IMG/VR virus record: IMGVR_UViG_2654588006_000003
Strand: one strand, 5' to 3'
From: a virus
Lineage: Duplodnaviria; Heunggongvirae; Uroviricota; Caudoviricetes
DNA: 40,302 bases
Shown here: piece by piece, positions 4,774 to 36,996 of the stretch
How positions within the stretch are numbered: the stretch's first letter is position 1
Layout of the letters: every line of letters starts with the position of its first letter
Position numbers and translations under genes: made by a program
The notes under the pieces: generated by a model
What the model saw: only the letters and a program-made list of their open reading frames with translations
The model's database searches: none
What the model was told of the DNA's origin: nothing

Positions 4774-4826
4774 GGGCGGCAGAGCAGTCACGGAGTAAAA
4801 CTGATACCGCCAAACGTCACCAGAAA
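4774..4826 (-). ncRNA. dicF: DicF small regulatory RNA (ftsZ-targeting antisense sRNA) with intrinsic terminator
   Basis: Minus-strand sequence UUUCUGGUGACGUUUGGCGGUAUCAGUUUUACUCCGUGACUGCUCUGCCGCCC followed by a U-run (plus 4769..4773); lies between ydfC and dicB. Confidence 0.9.
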
Positions 4827-6588: not shown

Positions 6589-7093
6589 ACAGGCTCGTGA
6601 GGCTCTGGATGCCTGGATATGTCGACCAGGAATGACACAGGAGCAGGCGACGATATTAATCACTGAAGCATTCTGGGCTTTGAAAGAGCGCCCGAACATC
6701 GATGTTCAGCGTGTCACATATGAAGGTGGCGCGATTGATCAGCGAGCGCTTGGCGTTAATCGAGTGAAGATATTTGAACGCTGGAAGGCTATCGACACCA
6801 GGGATAAGCGTGAAAAGTTCACGGCGCTAGTGCCTGCAATTATGGAGGCTATCCGGATTAATGATTTCAGGTTGTATCGTGAAATTACTGACGGAAAAAG
6901 CATCACGTGCATGATCGCCGGGTTAAACAAAGAATATGGCGATGTGGTGGAGTCCGGACTGCTTTTTGCTGATCCTGCCGTAGTGGATCGTGAAACTGAC
7001 GAACTTATAGAAAAAGCAATTGCTTTCAAACTTGCGTATCGACAGCAATACCAACAAAAAGCTGGATGGAATTATGAGCCTTCTTTTTGCTGA
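6572..7093 (+). CDS. YdaT-like protein (173 aa), probable regulator/toxin-family protein in CII-equivalent position
   Basis: ORF overlapping dicC stop by 17 nt; position downstream of the Cro-like gene mirrors ydaS-ydaT of Rac-type prophages. Family assignment from memory. Confidence 0.55.
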   Translation: MKITPEQAREALDAWICRPGMTQEQATILITEAFWALKERPNIDVQRVTYEGGAIDQRALGVNRVKIFERWKAIDTRDKREKFTALVPAIMEAIRINDFRLYREITDGKSITCMIAGLNKEYGDVVESGLLFADPAVVDRETDELIEKAIAFKLAYRQQYQQKAGWNYEPSFC

Positions 7094-8039
7094 ACGCCCA
7101 CTGGTTATAAACACGCAGCTGGCAATGAAAATTGGCTTAAACGAAGCCATTGTTTTGCAACAACTGCACTACTGGTTGAGAGATACCAACTCCGGCATGG
7201 AATGTGATGGTGTTCGCTGGATTTATAACACAACGGAACAATGGCTGGAACAGTTCCCATTCTGGTCAGAGTCAACGTTAAAGCGCGCGTTTGCAAGTCT
7301 GAAAACGCTGGGGCTTTTGCGTTGTGAAAAGCTCAATAAATCAAAGCGCGATATGACCAATTTCTACACGATCAACTATGGGAGCGAGCTTTTAGATGGT
7401 GGCAAATTGAGCGAATCCATCGGTTCAAAATGCGCCGCTCCATCAGGTCAAAATGACACGATGGAAGAGGTCAAAATGAAACGCTCCATTGGTTCAAAAC
7501 GACCCAATGTCATCGGGTCAAAATGGCCTGATGATCTTACAGAGAATACAACAGAGATTACTACAGAGAATAAAAACACTTTTCGTCCGGAAGCTTCGCA
7601 ACCGGACCCGCAGACGACTGAACAGGATTTTTTAACCCGGAACTCCGACGCGGTTGTGTTTAGTGCGAAAAAACGCCAGTGGGGTAGCAGGGAGGATTTG
7701 GCGTGTGCGCAGTGGATCTGGGGGCGGATCGTGGGTCTCTACGAACAGGCAGCCAGTGATGATGGCGAGATCATGCGACCAAAAGAGCCTAACTGGACTG
7801 CCTGGGCCAATGACGTGCGCACAATGCGGATGCTGGATGGCAGAAGCCACAGACAAATTTGCGAAATGTTTGGTCGGGTTCAGCGAGATCCATTCTGGGT
7901 AAAAAACATCATGAGCCCGTCAAAGCTCCGCGAAAAATGGGACGAACTGGTCATCCGCCTGGGACGTTCACCTGTACAGCGTTGTGTTAATCATATTTCT
8001 GAACCGGATACAGAAATTCCGCCTGGTTTCAGAGGATAA
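7074..8039 (+). CDS. Putative phage replication initiation protein (N-terminal wHTH, C-terminal DnaT-like region)
   Basis: ORF track 7020..8039; start placed at ATG 7074 (MSLLFAERPL) with upstream GGATGGA; contains embedded iteron-like repeats and an AT-rich tract, as in lambda O/ori. Confidence 0.6.
   Translation: MSLLFAERPLVINTQLAMKIGLNEAIVLQQLHYWLRDTNSGMECDGVRWIYNTTEQWLEQFPFWSESTLKRAFASLKTLGLLRCEKLNKSKRDMTNFYTINYGSELLDGGKLSESIGSKCAAPSGQNDTMEEVKMKRSIGSKRPNVIGSKWPDDLTENTTEITTENKNTFRPEASQPDPQTTEQDFLTRNSDAVVFSAKKRQWGSREDLACAQWIWGRIVGLYEQAASDDGEIMRPKEPNWTAWANDVRTMRMLDGRSHRQICEMFGRVQRDPFWVKNIMSPSKLREKWDELVIRLGRSPVQRCVNHISEPDTEIPPGFRG
7415..7600 (+). repeat. Iteron-like direct repeats plus AT-rich tract (candidate replication origin) inside the replication gene
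   Basis: Five copies of (a/c/t)ggt(t)caaaa(t/c)g at about 7421, 7445, 7468, 7490 and 7515 (23-24 bp spacing), then AT-rich repeats acagagaata/acagagatta (7540..7575). Confidence 0.5.
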
Positions 8040-8079
8040 GTGTTGATTTCAGGTCATGAGGTAATTTTAAGGGGGACTT

Positions 8080-8502
8080 GTGGCAAAAGTTTTTACACAA
8101 GAAGAGCGGGAAAAAATTAAATGGCAGGTGGTGGAACTCGTGCGCCAGAGCGGCCGTGAGACGTTACGGCAACTGGAAGCTAAAACAGGTGCGACTAGAT
8201 ATCTGATGAGCGTTCTTGCCAGAGAGCTGGTAGCCAGTGGCGATGTATACAACTCCGGCTACGGGTTATTCCCCTCTGAACAGGCGCGTAAGGACTGGCA
8301 AAACGCCCGCAAAAAACTCTCGAGGGCAAAGGTGAAGAAACCTGCTGTGGTTGATCCGGACCTTATCTGGTCATCACCTGACGGAGAAATACGTCGCTAC
8401 GACAGTCGCCTAAACATAATCTGTCGCGAGTGCCGGAAGAGCGAAGTTATGCAGCGCATACTGGCTTTCTATCAGGGTAATTTTCAGGACGTGGCGCAGT
8501 GA
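8080..8502 (+). CDS. Hypothetical protein (140 aa)
   Basis: GTG start preceded by AAGGGGGA; stop overlaps the GTG start of the downstream methyltransferase (GTGA); contains CRECRK motif. No family recognised. Confidence 0.5.
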   Translation: MAKVFTQEEREKIKWQVVELVRQSGRETLRQLEAKTGATRYLMSVLARELVASGDVYNSGYGLFPSEQARKDWQNARKKLSRAKVKKPAVVDPDLIWSSPDGEIRRYDSRLNIICRECRKSEVMQRILAFYQGNFQDVAQ

Positions 8503-8945
8503 GTGCACCGGCAACCATTCTTGATATGTGCTGTGGCAGCCGCATGTTCTGGTTCGATAAGTCTGACGAACGGGCGATATTCAGCGATATCAGAAAAGAA
8601 GGATACACATTACGCAATGGGAGACGCTTGATTATCAGCCCTGACATTATCGCAGATTTTCGTGCATTATCATTTGCAGACGCATCTTTTTCGATGGTTG
8701 TATTAGACCCTCCGCATCTTGAGAGTGTTGGTGATAACGCCTGGATGGGAAAGAAATATGGACGGCTGAATAAAGATGCCTGGCGTGATGATTCGCGACA
8801 GAGATTTAAAGAAGCCTTTCGGGTGTTGAGGCCGCACGGCGTTCTGATTTTTTAATGGAATGAAACGCAAATACCGGTAAGCCAGATTCTGGCACTGACA
8901 GACAGAAAACCTGTTATCTGTCAACGAACAGGGAAAAAACGATAA
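8499..8945 (+). pseudogene. DNA methyltransferase (amino-MTase motifs) interrupted by in-frame TAA at 8853..8855
   Basis: SAM-binding-like motif ILDMCCGS and catalytic-like VLDPPH in the 118-aa ORF 8499..8855; the same frame stays open for 29 more codons after the TAA (WNETQIPVSQILALTDRKPVICQRTGKKR) to 8945. Confidence 0.5.
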
Positions 8946-10007
8946 AACCCACTGGATTATTTTTATGAAAGAGGCATCCAGTGAGTAGATTCGTAAGGCT
9001 ACAGATACGTATATCTGAATAATTAAATTCAGTTCTGTAAATAAAATTTAATCCTTAACCGGATGGATTTCTGCACCCTCAGAACATCAGGAGGCCGCCC
9101 GAAAGGGCGGTAGTGAAATGCGAAAGTTCAAAATTATTATTGAAACGGGAATAGCTGGTGGAGATTTTGAGGATGTATTCGAAGTGGACGATGACGCAAC
9201 ACCTGAGGAAATTCATGACGGAGCATAAGAAATTTTCTTTAACTACTGCAATTACTCATACCACGAAATAAAAGACGATGAGGAAGAACAAAGTGGCTGA
9301 TTTTTGTTCAGCTAAATATAACATCAGTTTTGAAGAGCGGGATGAACTATTAATGGACTATGGTGAGTTACGCGGTGGAAGTGCTGCTGATGTCGAATCC
9401 TAGCGTGATGACTATGAAGCGGGAAAAACTCCGGTCGAAGCATATTGTGATGAGTGGGGCGATGAATGAGCGAGATTAATTATCAGGAAGGGCATGAAAC
9501 GGCGGGGCAAGCAAAACCAGTGGCATGGCGATATCGCTACGTGAAAAAAGGCGTTACGGACTTTCAGGGGAAGTAGTGGTCTGGTGACTGGAAATATGTA
9601 CCGAAAAAAGAGGATTGTAACGACAGGCCGAACTATCAAATTCAGGCCTTATTCACTGCCTCACCAGTCCCAGTTACATCAGAAGAACTGGTTAAAGCTG
9701 TGCACTTTTATGAACAACTAAAACGCGAAAATCCACCAACATCCGGCAACTAGATTAATGGATTAACTATGTCGGTTAAACGACCAGCCAACTGAAAAAG
9801 CGGAAACCTGATTACAGGTTGCCAGATAAGGCAATGAGCTACCTGGCGCGGAACGGACTGATAAGTATGGGGAATGTTTTACGATGAACCTTTAGACTAA
9901 AGAGTTTGTAACGCTATGTAAGTGATTTTTTCTGGTTTAGATATTTATATGTCCGGCCAAATTGAGGTGTGTTTAAATGTAATTGCACATTGATTGTAGG
10001 AGGAATA

Positions 10008-10187
10008 ATGAAAAACGCATTGCAGTTTTTGTTTGTTGCGTTCTGGTTGTTCGCATCATGTATGCCCATCATCTTCACAGCAAGGTATATGGAAAAAGTT
10101 GATGTTTTGATATTAATATTTGGATATATAAATGCCCTTTTTTTAGGGGTGTTCATGGCGGTCATGTGCATTGAATACTGGCGGTAA
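10008..10187 (+). CDS. Small hydrophobic (2-TM-like) protein, 59 aa
   Basis: Internal ATG of ORF 9969..10187 preceded by TAGGAGG; hydrophobic stretches FLFVAFWLFASCMPIIF and ILIFGYINALFLGVFMAVM; AT-rich context. Confidence 0.35.
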   Translation: MKNALQFLFVAFWLFASCMPIIFTARYMEKVDVLILIFGYINALFLGVFMAVMCIEYWR

Positions 10188-10521
10188 ATACAGCGAACTC
10201 CATTGGTTTAGTTGGATATTTACTGTGCTGGACAAAAACGGTTTGCGGGGAAATCTTAGTTAAGTAGAATGACTGCGGGTGCTTGAGGCTATCTGCCTCG
10301 GGCATGGACACCAACGGCAGATAGAGAAAAGCCCCAGTTAACATTACGCGTCCTGCAAGACGCTTAACATTAATCTGAGGCCAATTTCATGCTAGACACA
10401 TGTAGGTTAGCCTCTTACGTGCCGAAAGGCACGGAGAAGCAGGCTATTGTTAACACCAAGCTGTAATGTCCCCTTTGAACCATTCTAAAATGTCCCCAGA
10501 CAATTCTCTGGGGGATTTTTC

Positions 10522-11004
10522 ATGATCAAAGAGACTGTTACGATGAGTCATAAGGAACTCCACCGACTTCAGATTATTCAGGAACAAGCTGCGGCACGCA
10601 TTGGCATTTCTATTCGGCAGGTTAAACGTCTGGTGCAACGGTATAGAAATGAAGGGCCTTCTGGTCTGGTTTCCCACCGACGTGGAAAGCGTCCTAATAA
10701 TTCCTTTTCTACTGAATTCAGAGCAACAGTAATTTCACTCCTCAAAGGCCGTTACGCTGATTTTGGACCTACGTTTGCGTGCGAAAAATTGCGCGAGATA
10801 CACGGTTTATCTTTATCCGTTGAAACTCTCAGAAAGTGGATGATAGAAGAGGGGTTATGGCGTGAACGCCGTCGTAAAATTGCCCGTATATATCAACGCC
10901 GCATGCGACGACCATCTTACGGTGAACTGATCCAGATTGATGGCTCACCTCATGACTGGTTTGAAAATCGAGGCCCCCAGATGTACACTGATCGTTTTCA
11001 TTGA
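10522..11004 (+). CDS. Transposase N-terminal part (HTH domain), frame 1
   Basis: ORF track; HTH-like AARIGISIRQVKRLVQRY; ends shortly after IQIDGSPHDWFENRGP. Confidence 0.7.
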   Translation: MIKETVTMSHKELHRLQIIQEQAAARIGISIRQVKRLVQRYRNEGPSGLVSHRRGKRPNNSFSTEFRATVISLLKGRYADFGPTFACEKLREIHGLSLSVETLRKWMIEEGLWRERRRKIARIYQRRMRRPSYGELIQIDGSPHDWFENRGPQMYTDRFH

Positions 11005-11836
11005 TGATGCCACCAGTGCGTTGATGGCGTTGCGTTTTGTGCCTGCTGAAACAACCCGGGCTTACATGGAAACCCTCCGGGGTTACCTTAATGATCATGG
11101 CGTACCGCTCGCTCTCTACTCTGATAGACACAGTATATTCAGGGTAAATAACCCAGAGCGGGAAGGTGAGCTGACCCAGTTCACTCGTGCGATAAAGACA
11201 CTGGGCATCGAGCCAATCCATGCCAACAGCCCGCAGGCAAAAGGGCGGGTAGAGCGCGCCAATCAGACACTACAGGACAGGCTGGTCAAAGAAATGCGGC
11301 TTCAGAATATCAGTGATATTGAAACAGCAAATGCATGGTTGCCGACCTTTATTGAAGCCTATAACAACCGGTTCGCTACGTCGCCTCGTACTACTGATAA
11401 TGCTCATCTTGATGTGCACCATTCTGAAGAGGAACTGGGTTATATCTTCAGCCTACAGGCGAAGCGCGTTCTGTCTAAAAATCTCACTTTCCAGTACAAA
11501 AGCAGTGCGTTTCAGGTACGCAGTGAGGGCCGGGGATATCGACTTAGGCATTCGGTTGTTACTGTATGCGAGAACTTTGACGGTGAAATTAACGTTCTGT
11601 ATGACGGGAAAGCGCTGGGCTGGGAAAAGTATGTTGATGGCCCGGAGCCTATACCACTGGATGATGAAAAGAGTGTCCATGAACGAGTGGATAATGCCCG
11701 TATTGATTTACGCTCAAAATACTATGTTAAACCTAAAGCTGACCATCCCTGGCTTACGCGCCGAACGCAAAGTCATCAGCAAGTTAAGCCCCCGAAGTTA
11801 CCTAAAAAGAAGCCTGATCCCGATAAAAAAGATTGA
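10937..11836 (+). CDS. Transposase catalytic part (rve/DDE core and C-terminal domain), frame 2
   Basis: ORF track; motifs CTLIVFIDDATS, LYSDRHSIF and SPQAKGRVERANQTL typical of retroviral-integrase-like DDE transposases; continuity with the upstream ORF needs a 1-nt frame change in the C5 run at 10974..10978. Confidence 0.7.
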   Translation: MMAHLMTGLKIEAPRCTLIVFIDDATSALMALRFVPAETTRAYMETLRGYLNDHGVPLALYSDRHSIFRVNNPEREGELTQFTRAIKTLGIEPIHANSPQAKGRVERANQTLQDRLVKEMRLQNISDIETANAWLPTFIEAYNNRFATSPRTTDNAHLDVHHSEEELGYIFSLQAKRVLSKNLTFQYKSSAFQVRSEGRGYRLRHSVVTVCENFDGEINVLYDGKALGWEKYVDGPEPIPLDDEKSVHERVDNARIDLRSKYYVKPKADHPWLTRRTQSHQQVKPPKLPKKKPDPDKKD

Positions 11837-12272
11837 AACCAAGATCGATTCGGTTGAGTGCATATCCATTCATAGGGTAGATTCTTAAGTCGCGTTTCTG
11901 GTGTTCATTTTCGGGTGGTTTGTTACTTGTTTTACCGGGGATATGCCAGAAACGCGCTGAGTCAGTCTGGGCGGTGCGCGTAATGAGGCGTTATGGTAAA
12001 TAGCCTATGCTAATGTCCGCTAAGAGCAAGAAGCGGAAGTTGGCAGTTTTGTGGACTGTCCCCACAAAAGTGACTACAGAAATAGTTGCAATTCATAATT
12101 GATCATGGGTTGTCAGTTAAACTCGTGGCGATTTAAATAGACTAATTGGGAGTGCGTCCATTACTTATATCTTGTAATGTTAACTATCAGAAATGATACA
12201 AAGATAATATGTCTTTAAAGAAAAGGCTGATGGCGAAAAGTGGCCCGATGAGGGCCACAATACGGCTGTCAC

Positions 12273-12605
12273 TTAGACGTAAATATCAATGGTGCCAGCG
12301 GTATTTGTATCGTCTTTTTTCTCTTCTTTTTTATCAGGCTGAACTGTCGCGTCTTCATTCTTTTTCTCTGCCTGCTGCCTTAACAACTGCTCCAGTTGAG
12401 CCCAGAGGCTTTCAATTTGCTTCTGTACCAATGCAGCCATTTCTTTTTTCTGCTGTGTCGTCATCCCCTCTTCCGATGAGATTTTCCCAAGCTTTTCAGT
12501 CAGCACCTGAATTTGTCTTGTGATTTTGGCTATTTCTGATGTTCCTTCCGGGGCGGAGTTGTTTGAAATAACGGTTGAGGTATTTCCCTGAATTGTGACA
12601 GACAT
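12273..12605 (-). CDS. flxA: FlxA (110 aa), flagellar-regulon protein
   Basis: ORF track; sequence recognised; sigma-28-type promoter immediately upstream. Confidence 0.85.
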   Translation of the reverse strand: MSVTIQGNTSTVISNNSAPEGTSEIAKITRQIQVLTEKLGKISSEEGMTTQQKKEMAALVQKQIESLWAQLEQLLRQQAEKKNEDATVQPDKKEEKKDDTNTAGTIDIYV

Positions 12606-12627
12606 AGATTTCTCCTTTTAAAAAAGC

Positions 12628-12655
12628 ACTATCGGCATGCACAAAAAAATCTTTA
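12628..12655 (-). promoter_or_regulatory. Sigma-28 (FliA) type promoter for flxA
   Basis: Minus strand reads TAAAG - 15 nt - GCCGATAG about 20 nt upstream of the flxA start, matching the TAAA-N15-GCCGATAA consensus. Confidence 0.65.
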
Positions 12656-12807
12656 ATCGTATTTCTTGTGTCATTAATTGTTTGATGTTCAGATTGTTTT
12701 CCTCGCGGGCTGGCGCGCCTCAGAAAGTAAAGCTTGTTGACAGGGGTAAACGTTCGGCAATAATTTTCTGCCGCATGCGGGTGTTGCATAAAACGTGTTA
12801 CGTTCCT

Positions 12808-13113
12808 TTATCGACAGGTCAGGTCACCGCTCACCCGCCGACGAGAAAGCAACACTGACATGCTAAAGCAAAAAATAGATGAATAAGTTGAGTTGTGCAT
12901 ATGTAGCCTGACCGTCACAAAGTATATGGTGTCTGTACCAGTAAGATGATGGCCGGACTCTTTAAAAACGAGCTGACCTGCACAATACAGGATGGACTTA
13001 GCAATGGCTGCTCCTGGCACAAAGCGGACAGTGATCACCGTTCTTACGACTACTTTCTGACTTCCTTCGTGACTTGCCCTAAGCATGTTGTAGTGCGATA
13101 CTTGTAATGACAT
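12808..13113 (-). CDS. ydfV: YdfV-like hypothetical ORF (101 aa)
   Basis: ORF of matching size and position between flxA and relB; overlaps the relBE promoter region; possibly not a real gene. Confidence 0.3.
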   Translation of the reverse strand: MSLQVSHYNMLRASHEGSQKVVVRTVITVRFVPGAAIAKSILYCAGQLVFKESGHHLTGTDTIYFVTVRLHMHNSTYSSIFCFSMSVLLSRRRVSGDLTCR

Positions 13114-13126
13114 TTGTAATTACAAG
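13101..13126 (+). promoter_or_regulatory. relBE operator (palindromic repeats)
   Basis: cttgtaatgacatttgtaattacaag immediately upstream of relB; ttgtaat/attacaa inverted repeats. Confidence 0.6.
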
Positions 13127-13137
13127 AGGTGTAAGAC

Positions 13138-13377
13138 ATGGGTAGCATTAACCTGCGTATTGACGATGAACTTAAAGCGCGTTCTTACGCCGCGCTTGAA
13201 AAAATGGGTGTAACTCCTTCTGAAGCGCTTCGTCTCATGCTCGAGTATATCGCTGACAATGAACGCTTGCCGTTCAAACAGACACTCCTGAGTGATGAAG
13301 ATGCTGAACTTGTGGAGATAGTGAAAGAACGGCTTCGTAATCCTAAGCCAGTACGTGTGACGCTGGATGAACTCTGA
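13138..13377 (+). CDS. relB: RelB antitoxin (79 aa)
   Basis: ORF track; sequence MGSINLRIDDELKARSYA... recognised; stop overlaps relE start (TGATG). Confidence 0.95.
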   Translation: MGSINLRIDDELKARSYAALEKMGVTPSEALRLMLEYIADNERLPFKQTLLSDEDAELVEIVKERLRNPKPVRVTLDEL

Positions 13378-13664
13378 TGGCGTATTTTCTGGATTTTGAC
13401 GAGCGGGCACTAAAGGAATGGCGAAAGCTGGGCTCGACGGTACGTGAACAGTTGAAAAAGAAGCTGGTTGAAGTACTTGAGTCACCCCGGATTGAAGCAA
13501 ACAAGCTCCGTGGTATGCCTGATTGTTACAAGATTAAGCTCCGGTCTTCAGGCTATCGCCTTGTATACCAGGTTATAGACGAGAAAGTTGTCGTTTTCGT
13601 GATTTCTGTTGGGAAAAGAGAACGCTCGGAAGTATATAGCGAGGCGGTCAAACGCATTCTCTGA
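13377..13664 (+). CDS. relE: RelE mRNA interferase toxin (95 aa)
   Basis: ORF track; sequence recognised; coupled to relB. Confidence 0.95.
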   Translation: MAYFLDFDERALKEWRKLGSTVREQLKKKLVEVLESPRIEANKLRGMPDCYKIKLRSSGYRLVYQVIDEKVVVFVISVGKRERSEVYSEAVKRIL

Positions 13665-13735
13665 ACCAAAGCATGACATCTCTGTTTCGCACCGAAGGTG
13701 ACACTTCTGCTTTGCGTTGACAGGAGAAGCAGGCT

Positions 13736-13891
13736 ATGAAGCAGCAAAAGGCGATGTTAATCGCCCTGATCGTCATCTGTTTAACCGTCATAGTGACGGC
13801 ACTGGTAACGAGGAAAGACCTCTGCGAGGTACGAATCCGAACCGGCCAGACGGAGGTCGCTGTCTTCACAGCTTACGAACCTGAGGAGTAA
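13736..13891 (+). CDS. hokD: HokD (RelF) Hok-family membrane toxin (51 aa)
   Basis: Hand translation MKQQKAMLIALIVICLTVIVTALVTRKDLCEVRIRTGQTEVAVFTAYEPEE; below ORF-track cut-off. Confidence 0.85.
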   Translation: MKQQKAMLIALIVICLTVIVTALVTRKDLCEVRIRTGQTEVAVFTAYEPEE

Positions 13892-13959
13892 GAGACCCGG
13901 CGGGGGAGAAATCCCTCGCCACCTCTGATGTGGCAGGCATCCTCAACGCACCCGCACTT

Positions 13960-13986
13960 AACCCGCTTCGGCGGGTTTTTGTTTTT
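13960..13986 (+). terminator. Rho-independent terminator after relBE-hokD
   Basis: cccgc-ttcg-gcggg stem-loop followed by a T-run. Confidence 0.65.
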
Positions 13987-14107
13987 ATTTTCAACGCGTT
14001 TGAAGTTCTGGACGGTGCCGGAATAGAATCAAAAATACTTAAGTAGCGCGCAGGGATAAGAGGGATGGTCCCTTAAAGGGGAGAGCTAATTATCCGGAAG
14101 GATTCTG

Positions 14108-14359
14108 ATGATGAACATCGAAGAACTGCGTAAAATTTTTTGTGAAGATGGCCTCTATGCTGTGTGCGTTGAAAATGGAAATCTTGTTAGTCATTACCGC
14201 ATTATGTGTTTGCGAAAGAATGGGGCTGCGTTAATTAATTTTGTGGATGCTCGGGTCACGGACGGATTTATCTTGCGCGAAGGTGAGTTTGTCACTTCAT
14301 TACAGGCATTGAAAGAGATCGGAATAAAAGCTGGCTTTTCTGCTTTTTCAGGAGAATAA
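14108..14359 (+). CDS. rem: Rem (83 aa), unknown function
   Basis: ORF track; size and position between hokD and ydfU. Confidence 0.75.
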   Translation: MMNIEELRKIFCEDGLYAVCVENGNLVSHYRIMCLRKNGAALINFVDARVTDGFILREGEFVTSLQALKEIGIKAGFSAFSGE

Positions 14360-17155: not shown

Positions 17156-17455
17156 AAAAATTCCTTAATACTGATAACTTGGCGCACTATACACACGTTC
17201 CTGAAGAAAGCTATAGTTTTTTGATGGGGTTGAAGATGGCTGGATGTCTAAAATAAACATTGCTTCATATGTTCAACTATGCGTTAATGATTGCGTCGGT
17301 TTGAAGAACAGACGATATACGAAGTAGTTTACTAAAGCAGTTCTCATTTCAGGTGTTATTCACTTATTCCTTCTTTGAGTCTCTCCAATTAAGTACGAAG
17401 TCGTTTCTGTTATGCAAACCATTTATGCCGAAAGGCTCAAGTTAAGGAATGTAGA

Positions 17456-17671
17456 ATGTCAAATAAAATGACTGGTTTAGTAAAATGGTTTAACGCTGAT
17501 AAAGGTTTCGGCTTTATTTCTCCTGTTGATGGTAGTAAAGATGTGTTTGTGCATTTTTCTGCGATTCAGAATGATAATTATCGAACCTTATTTGAAGGTC
17601 AAAAGGTTACCTTCTCTATAGAGAGTGGTGCTAAAGGTCCTGCAGCAGCAAATGTCATCATTACTGATTAA
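17456..17671 (+). CDS. cspB: Cold-shock protein CspB (71 aa)
   Basis: ORF track; [21 protein letters not shown]... with RNP motifs; long AT-rich 5' leader. Confidence 0.9.
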
Positions 17672-17952
17672 AATTCATCGCTCGTCTGTATACGATAACG
17701 AAGAAGGCTGATGCCTGAGTAGAGATACGGACAGAGTAGTGAATATTGGATCTCTTTAATAAAAAGTAAGGAGGTCCAATACATGAAACAATGGCTAGCA
17801 TATTTGGCAAAATCTTAATCAGGAAAAGTATGCTAACCATTGTGGTGAAGTGCAGGTTTGCTGCATGAATAGTTTTACAGCAGAAGCTAACTGCTGGCAT
17901 GGCAAAACAAAGTGCGTAAGTGGATGACTCCCACAAAAAGCACCACAATCTC

Positions 17953-19980: not shown

Positions 19981-20342
19981 GGTAATATTAAATCGGAACA
20001 TTTACATCGCGGAATGTAAAATTTAAATAAAAAGGACTCTTCCATGAGCCAAAATTCCTGAAATCTTAAGGGTAAGATAAAAGGTCTTAATCAGAATGAC
20101 ACGTTTTATTAATAAATAAAGCTATTCTTTCATTGCTGTGTTTTTCTTTACAAAAGTAATCCTTGCTATGGGTGGTTAATCATGCGTTAATGGTGTTCTG
20201 GTTTGTTACAAATTTATCTGAAGCAGTCATTGTTATAATTTTATTATTTGTACCTCTTGAGATTTCCTTGTTGGTTTTTCTCTCTGATATTTTTTTTCGG
20301 ACCATTCTGCCCAAGGGCTAATTTCTTCAAAAGGTAATAATT

Positions 20343-20555
20343 ATGTCTAACAAAATGACTGGTTTAGTGAAATGGTTTAACCCTGAAAAAGGTTTTGGTT
20401 TCATCACGCCGAAAGATGGCAGCAAAGATGTGTTTGTCCATTTCTCAGCAATTCAGAGCAACGATTTCAAAACATTAACTGAGAATCAGGAAGTTGAATT
20501 TGGTATTGAGAACGGACCTAAAGGTCCTGCCGCTGTTCATGTAGTGGCGCTTTGA
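20343..20555 (+). CDS. cspI: Cold-shock protein CspI (70 aa)
   Basis: ORF track; CSD signature [23 protein letters not shown]... Confidence 0.9.
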
Positions 20556-20589
20556 GGTAGACAATATTACAAACCATATTCACTTTAGA

Positions 20590-36421: not shown

Positions 36422-36996
36422 TGGCATTCAGAATGAGTGAACAACCACGGACCATAAAAATTTATAATCTGCTGGCCGGAACTAATGAATTTATTGGTGA
36501 AGGTGATGCATATATTCCGCCTCATACAGGTCTGCCAGCAAACAGTACCGATATTGCACCGCCAGATATTCCGGCTGGCTTCGTGGCTGTTTTCAACAGT
36601 GATGAGTCATCGTGGCATCTCGTTGAAGATCATCGGGGTAAAACGGTTTATGACGTGGCTTCCGGCAACGCGTTATTTATTTCTGAACTCGGTCCGTTAC
36701 CGGAAAATGTTACCTGGTTATCGCCGGAAGGGGAGTTTCAGAAGTGGAACGGCACAGCCTGGGTGAAGGATACGGAAGCAGAAAAACTGTTCCGGATCCG
36801 GGAGGCGGAAGAAACAAAAAACAACCTGATGCAGGTAGCCAGTGAGCATATTGCGCCGCTTCAGGATGCTGCAGATCTGGAAATTGCAACGGAGGAAGAA
36901 ATCTCGTTGCTGGAAGCATGGAAAAAGTATCGGGTATTGCTGAACCGTGTTGATACGTCAACTGCACAGGATATTGAATGGCCAGCACTGCCGTAG
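36421..36996 (+). CDS. tfaQ: Tail fibre assembly protein Tfa (191 aa)
   Basis: ORF track; start overlaps stf stop; sequence recognised as the TfaR/TfaQ family. Confidence 0.9.

Follow-up and report, generated by a model that had tools for sequence, protein, structure and literature searches.

Hairpins upstream of a prophage transposase gene mark the probable left junction between a split hokD locus and a relBE-carrying transposon of the ISEsa1 lineage

The subject of this study is the interval 10260-10520 of a 40,302-nucleotide viral sequence (Caudoviricetes; IMG/VR record IMGVR_UViG_2654588006_000003), which is referred to below, over its whole length, as the window. Downstream of the interval lie, in this order, an inactivated transposase gene, the genes flxA and ydfV on the opposite strand, the type II toxin-antitoxin pair relBE, and the toxin gene hokD (Table 1). 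A preliminary description, made from the letters of the sequence, had noted here a cluster of stable hairpins and repeated motifs, some of which recurred at 12008-12061, and had left open whether they represent an element terminus with transposase-binding sites, a partial duplicated end, or a structured RNA. When 10260-10520 and 12008-12061 were checked, all listed motifs were found at the coordinates given for them, some shifted by one base. Our data indicate with high confidence that in this interval a split hokD type I toxin-antitoxin locus adjoins the left end of a 3,275-bp transposon of the ISEsa1 lineage (IS1202 family). Considered alone, such a junction is ordinary, since both kinds of sequence are known.

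The clustering of stable hairpins was far above chance. The segment 10275-10450 had a minimum free energy of -64.7 kcal/mol (z = -3.67), and 0 of 200 shuffled sequences were as stable. A covariance search against Rfam returned RF01794 ("sok") with 104.1 bits against a gathering score of 59 (E = 7.5e-24); the match spans 10277-10448 on the plus strand and covers the full length of the model (positions 1-157). The model starts with GGGUGCUUGAGG and ends with a Shine-Dalgarno sequence (SD) and AUG; despite the family name "sok", both model and match thus have the orientation of the hok mRNA, and Sok RNA proper would come from the opposite strand within the match. A structured RNA was thus the right option for 10277-10447, which is a hok mRNA leader with its antisense sok region, and its successive stem-loops are the 9-bp stem, the TTAACATTA/GCGTC stem, and the GAAA-loop hairpin noted earlier. 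BLAST of 10270-10450 against 5,426 complete E. coli genomes returned leaders 92-98% identical that abut annotated hokD coding sequences; the leader of the window is 98% identical to such directly abutting leaders, for example that of strain NC22. Plasmid R1 hok/sok and the chromosomal loci hokA-E (RF01794) show the same architecture: tac, stem-loops, mok-type SD and ATG, an SD-proximal hairpin, an open reading frame (ORF) for a Hok/Gef-family toxin, and fbi. In the window this ORF does not directly follow the leader; 3,275 bp lie between the two parts, which abut in uninterrupted alleles, and the window therefore holds a disrupted member of the hok group.

Alignment of the NC22 locus with both segments showed that it corresponds to window positions 10170-10447 joined to 13723-14120. 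The 15-bp sequence GGAGAAGCAGGCTAT is present once in NC22 and twice in the window, in copies that are 100% identical and 3,290 bp apart. From the empty site and the single copy in NC22 it follows that the 3,275 bp at 10448-13722 were inserted and that 15 bp of target were duplicated. The inserted segment lies between the hairpin preceding the hok SD and the start codon of hokD. The inserted unit begins with TGTTAACACCAAGCTGTAATGTCCCC... and finishes with ...GGTGACACTTCTGCTTTGCGTTGACA. Its terminal repeats contain no exact seed of 7 nt and were assessed by ungapped comparison to every position of the window, in which the left (IRL) and right (IRR) inverted repeats agreed at 22 of 30 positions, the top non-self match among approximately 80,600. 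Both ends carry TGT at positions 1-3 and TGTC at 20-23, with a further TGTC at 45-48 in the reverse complement of IRR, and the unit closes with ACA. Wherever else the element was found, in contexts unrelated to this one, its first base corresponded to 10448, and the 25-mer at the right end of the window element also terminates the element in 17 other loci. An element terminus with transposase-binding sites was hence the correct option for 10448-10520, which is the left inverted repeat with its two AATGTCCCC boxes. These boxes are kept at both ends of related insertion sequences (IS) in Hahella and Rhabdochlamydiaceae. The terminal ...TTGACA is common to the window element and both of these relatives, and the longer ...TTTGCGTTGACA is shared with the Rhabdochlamydiaceae IS alone. 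The hairpins consequently belong to the hok leader and are located outside the mobile element, and the element, which includes relBE, is 3.3 kb long and not approximately 1.6 kb.

A different reading takes the whole of 10260-10520 as part of the IS, with the hairpins as transposase-binding or regulatory structures and an element end near 12060. It draws on the adjoining transposase gene and on the 8-mers TAATGTCC and TGTCCCCA, which recur in order at 12011 and 12057, on the same strand and with only two occurrences each in the 40-kb window. However, copies elsewhere, starting at the 10448 equivalent, lack 10277-10447 unless they are inserted in a hok locus, and this segment is contiguous with hokD in 4,035 of the 5,426 E. 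coli genomes. The recurrence itself was no better than expected from shuffled sequences: when aligned locally with the left end, 12000-12200 scored 17 at best, a value reached by 138 of 500 shuffles, and for the right end 158 of 500 shuffles reached the observed score. A partial duplicated end on the far flank is therefore not supported. The first of the recurring motifs (12009-12018) lies within the non-coding tail of the ISEsa1 core, and the second, at 12057, falls beyond the core, where homology to other ISEsa1 copies has ended. The target duplication and the authentic right repeat are found at 13722-13737, with the true right end at 13722 and not at 12008-12061. We regard this reading as extremely improbable, and the empty-site alignment with NC22 refutes it. 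The core end of copies carrying ncr genes aligns loosely to the authentic right repeats, which hints at a vestigial inner right end near the end of the core, or may reflect a decayed head-to-tail tandem.

Table 1. Coordinates of the features discussed, in window positions.
Feature	Position	Strand	Basis or remark
hok promoter remnant	-35 TTTGCG 10242-10247; 17-nt spacer; -10 TAGAAT 10265-10270	+	homology
hokD-type hok mRNA 5' leader	10277-10447	+	Rfam RF01794, homology, fold
tac element	10277-10288	+	part of leader
9-bp stem	CTATCTGCC 10289-10297 / GGCAGATAG 10316-10324	+	exact motif search
AAAGCCCC block	within 10277-10447	+	part of leader
Putative antisense sok gene	10322-10432	-	position of Sok in R1 hok/sok and reading of the sequence by eye
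Stem	10337-10374	+	part of leader; holds TTAACATTA/GCGTC
Direct repeat TTAACATTA	10338, 10364		around GCGTC (10348) / GACGC (10359)
mok-type SD GAGG	10377-10380	+	ATG at 10389
Truncated mok-type ORF	10389-10466	+	25 codons, MLDTCRLASYVPKGTEKQAIVNTKL then stop; now stops inside transposon end
Putative sok promoter	-35 GTGCCT 10432-10427; 17-nt spacer; -10 TAACCT 10409-10404	-	by eye
GAAA-loop hairpin	CGTGCCGAAAGGCACG 10418-10433	+	exact motif search
hok SD GGAG	10433-10436	+	
Left target duplication GGAGAAGCAGGCTAT	10433-10447	.	hok SD through AT of start codon
IRL and transposon leader	10448-10521	+	starts TGT
TAATGTCC	10464, 12011		same strand
AATGTCCCC boxes	10465-10473, 10489-10497	+	24 nt apart, inside 19-nt direct repeats
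TGTCCCCA	10491, 12057		same strand
Terminator-like hairpin	10493-10514	+	immediately 5' of transposase ATG
ISEsa1-family (IS1202 family) DDE transposase gene, inactivated	10522-11836	+	NCBIfam NF033594
Non-coding tail of ISEsa1 core	11837-12041	+	homology with copies carrying other cargo ends at 12041
flxA, passenger	12273-12605	-	Pfam PF14282 and annotation
ydfV, passenger	12808-13113	-	annotation
relB	13138-13377	+	type II toxin-antitoxin
relE	13377-13664	+	type II toxin-antitoxin
IRR	13673-13722	-	ends ...CTTCTGCTTTGCGTTGACA
Right target duplication	13723-13737	.	gives hokD its SD and the AT of its ATG
Split hok 3' half	13736-13977	+	collinear with uninterrupted allele
hokD ORF	13736-13891	+	annotation
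fbi CCTCAACGCACCCGC	13941-13955	+	
Terminator	13960-13977	+	terminator scan

The tac sequence GCGGGTGCTTGAGG (10275-10288) pairs with fbi over a distance of 3.6 kb, with a predicted duplex energy of -38.7 kcal/mol versus -22.5 +/- 3.6 kcal/mol for shuffles, and when the hok RNA was rejoined in silico its minimum-energy fold paired nucleotides 1-12 to nucleotides 375-387. Full-length hok mRNAs are defined by such a tac/fbi fold-back (mechanism: PMC9841398). The mok-type frame of the uninterrupted allele runs in frame with hokD and comprises 19 + 51 = 70 codons, whereas in plasmid R1 mok and hok overlap in different frames. PMC6379469 attributes to Ramisetty & Santhosh (2016) an ancestral hokD ORF of approximately 70 codons that relBE integration cut to 51. 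Our codon count agrees with that attribution, and the split itself is therefore known in outline, as far as the citing paper conveys it.

On the right-hand side, relBE reads outward to the end of the element and hokD, and a terminator scan from relE to hokD detected none. With relBE directed across the right end and no terminator in between, hok would become the third relBE cistron, which is the known relBEF arrangement; co-transcription of relBEF is reported in the literature. The target duplication would rebuild an SD and AT(G) ahead of hok. RelB and RelE are 100% identical in amino acid sequence to the K-12 pair. Pedersen and Gerdes are said to have reported in 1999 that hokA, hokC, and hokE of K-12 are disrupted by a mobile element. 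The hokD of the window resembles these three in that respect and differs from hokA-E in that the disrupting element sits exactly at the boundary between leader and ORF, with SD and start codon regenerated.

Among the 5,426 complete E. coli genomes, the left junction was present in 686, the right junction in 1,164, and at least one uninterrupted hokD-type locus in 4,035. K-12 MG1655 (L074) matches the window at 99.9% besides a 4.8-kb deletion (6852-11651), which took the hokD leader and the left repeat together with genes of the phage replication region and the greater part of the transposase gene. What remains in K-12 is ydfW, the C-terminal piece of the transposase, plus ydfX, a fusion ORF across the deletion junction. 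The K-12 picture of a hokD without leader is thus due to this deletion.

Stranded and plasmid-borne hok leaders are interrupted at further positions. In E. coli C, NCTC122, and WG5 the stranded leader is also split at approximately 10313/10314 by the IS3-like ISSen4, with homology to the window resuming at 10314, and in other strains it is split by IS3 or IS1. Several plasmid hok leaders with an ISEsa1-type insertion (L006 at approximately 600-660; L008, L016, and L022 just 5' of the left transposon end) have a second interruption upstream, between the AAAGCCCC block and the mok SD, which ends ...TGTCCAACTTTTTGGGGTCAGTAC and which we take to be IS150-like (IS3 family). This would make a second site of recurrent IS insertion in hok leaders.

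The transposase gene of the window is broken into two fragments. Both match NF033594, in line with a DDE transposase of the ISNCY/IS1202 type, with 173.9 bits (profile positions 7-147) and 270.2 bits (143-365), and they are 93.8% and 99.7% identical to an intact ISEsa1-family protein; sequence identity of the transposase to proteins under the NCBI name "IS1202-like element ISEsa1 family" is 94-100%. Compared with intact copies, the gene has lost 27 bp in frame after 10577 and gained one base near 10974. A single ORF of 400-500 amino acids is not present in the window; the intact protein has 446 amino acids in the Salmonella plasmid and Shigella copies (L004 and L017). The 27-bp deletion (10570-10585 compared with L004 3123-3160, in the N-terminal helix-turn-helix) lies between the near-identical 11-nt repeats ATTATTCAGGA and ATTACTCAGGA, which suggests that it may have arisen by slippage or short homology. 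At 3,275 bp and with four passenger genes, the unit is a transposon or "transporter IS" built on an ISEsa1 core and not a plain compact IS (approximately 1.3-2 kb).

Related units were found in other enterobacteria. A Salmonella IncI-gamma/K1 plasmid carries the same unit with 4 substitutions in 3,275 bp. There it occupies another, pnd-like hok locus and is flanked by a separate 15-bp duplication, TGGAGGGGCTATGAT, likewise ending at the AT of the hok start codon. On a K. pneumoniae IncHI1B plasmid (L006) the same left end is found in a third hok leader; 12.8 kb of ncr, chr, and other genes are followed there by relBE and the same right repeat, and then by a fourth hok ORF. A scan of species-representative genomes with the intact transposase as query gave 67 loci. 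At the enterobacterial loci an exact or near-exact copy of the 25-nt right repeat was located 2.4-9 kb from the left end, and enterobacterial elements with the same left and right repeats ranged from 2.4 to 12.8 kb overall. In most enterobacterial copies with a captured right end, relBE is found approximately 60 bp from that end; exceptions are L024 and L038, both from Scandinavium, with a variant right repeat and no relBE. Target duplications of 13-16 bp were identified in 14 other enterobacterial loci, and 21 copies in genomes of Hahella, Chromatiales, and Rhabdochlamydiaceae had duplications of 15-17 bp. The plain relatives are IS of 1.45 kb, with transposase identities of 62% (Hahella) and 50% (Rhabdochlamydiaceae genome).

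Between the transposase and relBE sits variable cargo, mostly for metal or ion resistance (L006, L008/L010/L018, L019, L025): ncrABCY with chrBA; a cation-diffusion-facilitator pump with cytochrome b561; ClC with arsR/arsB/arsC/arsH-like genes; and YdcZ exporters with a LysR regulator. Relatives with other cargo keep the first 20-39 codons of ydfV beside relB. Some copies contain nested IS110- or IS30-like insertions. The cargo of one Scandinavium copy (L019 12792-12986) includes a 65-amino-acid fragment of the C-terminus of a second, 60%-identical transposase, which hints that the composite units arose from two adjacent IS copies. Head-to-tail tandems, in which a right repeat is followed by a short duplication and the left repeat of a second, related element, were observed at L022 11554-11570, L027 11377-11395, and in L145. 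The family, as judged from these arrangements, tends to re-insert beside its own right end, and this fits a preference for CAA/ACA 5' of the duplication.

CAA or ACA stands directly 5' of the duplication in 15 of 20 Hahella and Rhabdochlamydiaceae IS copies, and the hok site (...GGCAA followed by GGAG...) and several non-hok enterobacterial sites (GGCAA or GGCAT before the duplication) match the pattern. The hok start region itself was hit repeatedly. In the species genomes, 12-13 of approximately 23 distinct sites were at a hok SD/ATG, and the leaders concerned were mutually 54% identical. Metagenome contigs were scanned for exact matches to the 26-nt left end, which gave 38 distinct left junctions; 29 of these were hok leaders or hok-type duplications, in several registers, and in all 29 the left end faces the leader. 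Taken over the hok sites, orientation was the same in 41 of 42 and the insertion points were spread within approximately 10 bp.

The association with hok might instead derive from one ancestral insertion spread by homologous recombination, or from selection for hok inactivation, with no choice of target by the transposase. Such routes have a substrate, as hok loci are repeated within cells and on plasmids, and the flanks of L006 stem from two different hok loci, which points to recombination between copies. Nevertheless, each site duplicates its own 13-16 bp, in registers 1 to approximately 10 nt apart (GGAGAAGCAGGCTAT, TGGAGGGGCTATGAT, GGAGAAGAAGCCATG, GATATGCTGACAAA, and others), and the leaders are just 54% identical. 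Selection for inactivation would allow insertion anywhere in the locus of approximately 400 bp and in either orientation, but the sites fall within approximately 10 bp and 41 of 42 point one way. Furthermore, non-hok sites and distant relatives also have CAA/ACA directly 5' of the duplication. We consider recombination or selection a highly unlikely source of the pattern. Choice of target by the element appears to be the better explanation, because locus-specific duplications and shifted registers at one spot and in one orientation exceed what recombination or selection alone would give. The DDE transposase would bind the paired AATGTCCCC-type boxes predicted as its sites at both ends, and integration would use a stagger of approximately 15 bp directly 3' of the ...GGCAA that closes the hairpin before the SD.

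The published description of ISEsa1 bears on the extent of the element. ISEsa1 is listed with 1,609 bp and inverted repeats that agree at 15 of 22 positions; multiple copies are given as lacking a target duplication, and it has a subgroup of its own (Harmer & Hall 2023, PMC10132070; the IS1202 family paper is also at bioRxiv 10.1101/2022.12.17.520857), separate from the ISTde1 subgroup. An initial TGT and a conserved block near position 20 characterise the ends of the IS1202 family (PMC10132070). The window element shares with ISEsa1/IS1202 the TGT ends, the block at position 20, and the transposase, and its duplication falls within the 15-17-bp class of the family. In contrast to the listed end at 1,609 bp, the duplication-bearing unit described here measures 2.4-12.8 kb and ends after relBE. 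The homology of the window core stops at 12041, approximately where a 1.6-kb IS would end, and wherever a duplication could be recognised, the copy ended at the distal repeat, beyond relBE. On comparison of these copies, the listed right end of ISEsa1 is probably too early and the functional right end would be the distal one; that no duplication is listed would then be because the right end was drawn before the cargo.

We hypothesize that ISEsa1-lineage elements are site- and orientation-specific, "hok-seeking" transposons armed with relBE, that they place hok under relBE, that the K-12 relBE(-hokD/relF) operon is the right end of such an element, and that this accounts for the missing duplication of ISEsa1. 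Taken as a whole this proposal is plausible, with the case for and against it evenly poised. Several findings weigh against the main interpretation, that of a split hokD locus joined to an ISEsa1-lineage transposon with a preference for hok. About half of the sites in the genome set and 9 of the 38 metagenome junctions are non-hok, so targeting is a strong preference, short of absolute. Some "distinct" metagenome junctions may be single-nucleotide or assembly variants of one event, the plasmid copy L006 has non-matching flanks, and L021 is in the opposite orientation. The argument that ISEsa1 was delimited too short draws on the published table. The transposase of the window is inactive, and no movement takes place here now. 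Lastly, the Sok and hok promoters fail a simple consensus scan, and the stranded half may be silent.

The insertion would leave the hok promoter, tac, the mok start, the Sok target, and antisense sok upstream of the element. In the uninterrupted NC22 allele the hok promoter reads TTGGCG-17-TAGAAT (9 of 12 consensus positions); owing to a weaker -35, the promoter of the window does not reach the scan threshold. Our assignment of sok was guided by where Sok lies in hok/sok of plasmid R1; the putative sok transcript would run from approximately 10397 to approximately 10322, with a predicted end formed by a hairpin and CUUUUCUCU. A consensus scan of 10150-10600 on both strands gave zero promoters at threshold, and the hok and Sok promoters were assigned through homology and by eye alone. 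The sok -35 is TTGCCT in the uninterrupted allele and GTGCCT in the window, an A-to-C change. Position 10432, the base 5' of the duplication, is C (GGCAC) in the window and in 21 metagenome contigs, and uninterrupted alleles, as well as 4 contigs with the identical insertion, have A there (GGCAA); this base closes the putative target motif and at the same time belongs to the putative Sok -35. Transcripts from the hok promoter would probably be halted at the hairpin in the left repeat (10493-10514).

The stranded leader could still be at work, with a Sok-type RNA, and maybe a truncated leader RNA, acting in trans on hokD-type mRNAs of other prophages as an orphan antitoxin. The full sok region is kept, with its -10 and the 17-nt spacing; the junction is retained in 686 genomes, most genomes also have uninterrupted hokD-type loci (median 2 places per genome), and the leader is 100% conserved among many strains. 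This conservation may, however, simply mirror a recent insertion, and the sok -35 carries the A-to-C change relative to uninterrupted alleles in a region where no promoter passes the scan. Approximately 480 genomes, K-12 included, are without this half, with no known consequence, and R1 hok is not silenced by chromosomal Sok RNAs (PMC9841398). We therefore judge an orphan antitoxin to be unlikely.

Other matches above the Rfam gathering scores in the window were IS009 at 36764-36962 (+; 221 bits), two cspA thermoregulator leaders at 17295-17687 (+; 159 bits) and 20197-20582 (+; 113 bits), and DicF at 4774-4825 (-; 77 bits), as expected for a Qin-like prophage. A ceN48 snoRNA match (23 bits) and a minus-strand "sok" match (19 bits) were far below their gathering scores and were dismissed.

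Comparison with known elements places the transposon beside several others. The ISAjo2/ISAba32 subgroup belongs to the same family and is also site- and orientation-specific beside a short, partly palindromic sequence. Those IS insert 5 bp from XerC/D sites (dif, pdif), in one orientation and with a 5-6-bp duplication, whereas the window element inserts at the hok SD and start codon after ...GGCAA with a duplication of approximately 15 bp and, unlike them, has a toxin-antitoxin pair at one end. One transposase with passengers inside terminal repeats is also the layout of transporter IS such as ISKpn21, and transposons of the Tn3 family with built-in type II toxin-antitoxin pairs have been reported. 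In comparison with both, the cargo here is variable, and relBE is near-constant at the right end and directed outward into the target gene. A literature search found no paper on this transposon, its duplication, hok targeting, or a link between ISEsa1/ISNCY, relBE, and hok, with Ramisetty & Santhosh (2016) covered only as cited elsewhere. As far as we searched, a cargo-carrying ISEsa1-lineage transposon with relBE, duplications of approximately 15 bp, and a strong, oriented preference for the hok start is undescribed.

With these findings the relBE-hokD arrangement of K-12, which is among the best-studied toxin-antitoxin loci, gains a concrete molecular origin, namely a transposon insertion with defined ends and a 15-bp duplication, and the "missing" regulatory half of hokD, deleted in K-12, is now located. 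The probable mis-delimitation of ISEsa1 suggests, if right, how the published anomaly of an absent duplication is settled. The data also point to a second, distinct target specificity within the IS1202 family, the hok translation-start region. If the proposed preference is true, each landing would either give the element a second toxin or disarm an addiction system of a plasmid or prophage. The same vehicle carries genes for nickel, chromate, arsenic, and cation efflux on clinical plasmids. Since most large enterobacterial plasmids and lambdoid prophages carry hok, such a preference would bear on the spread of resistance genes and the rewiring of addiction systems.

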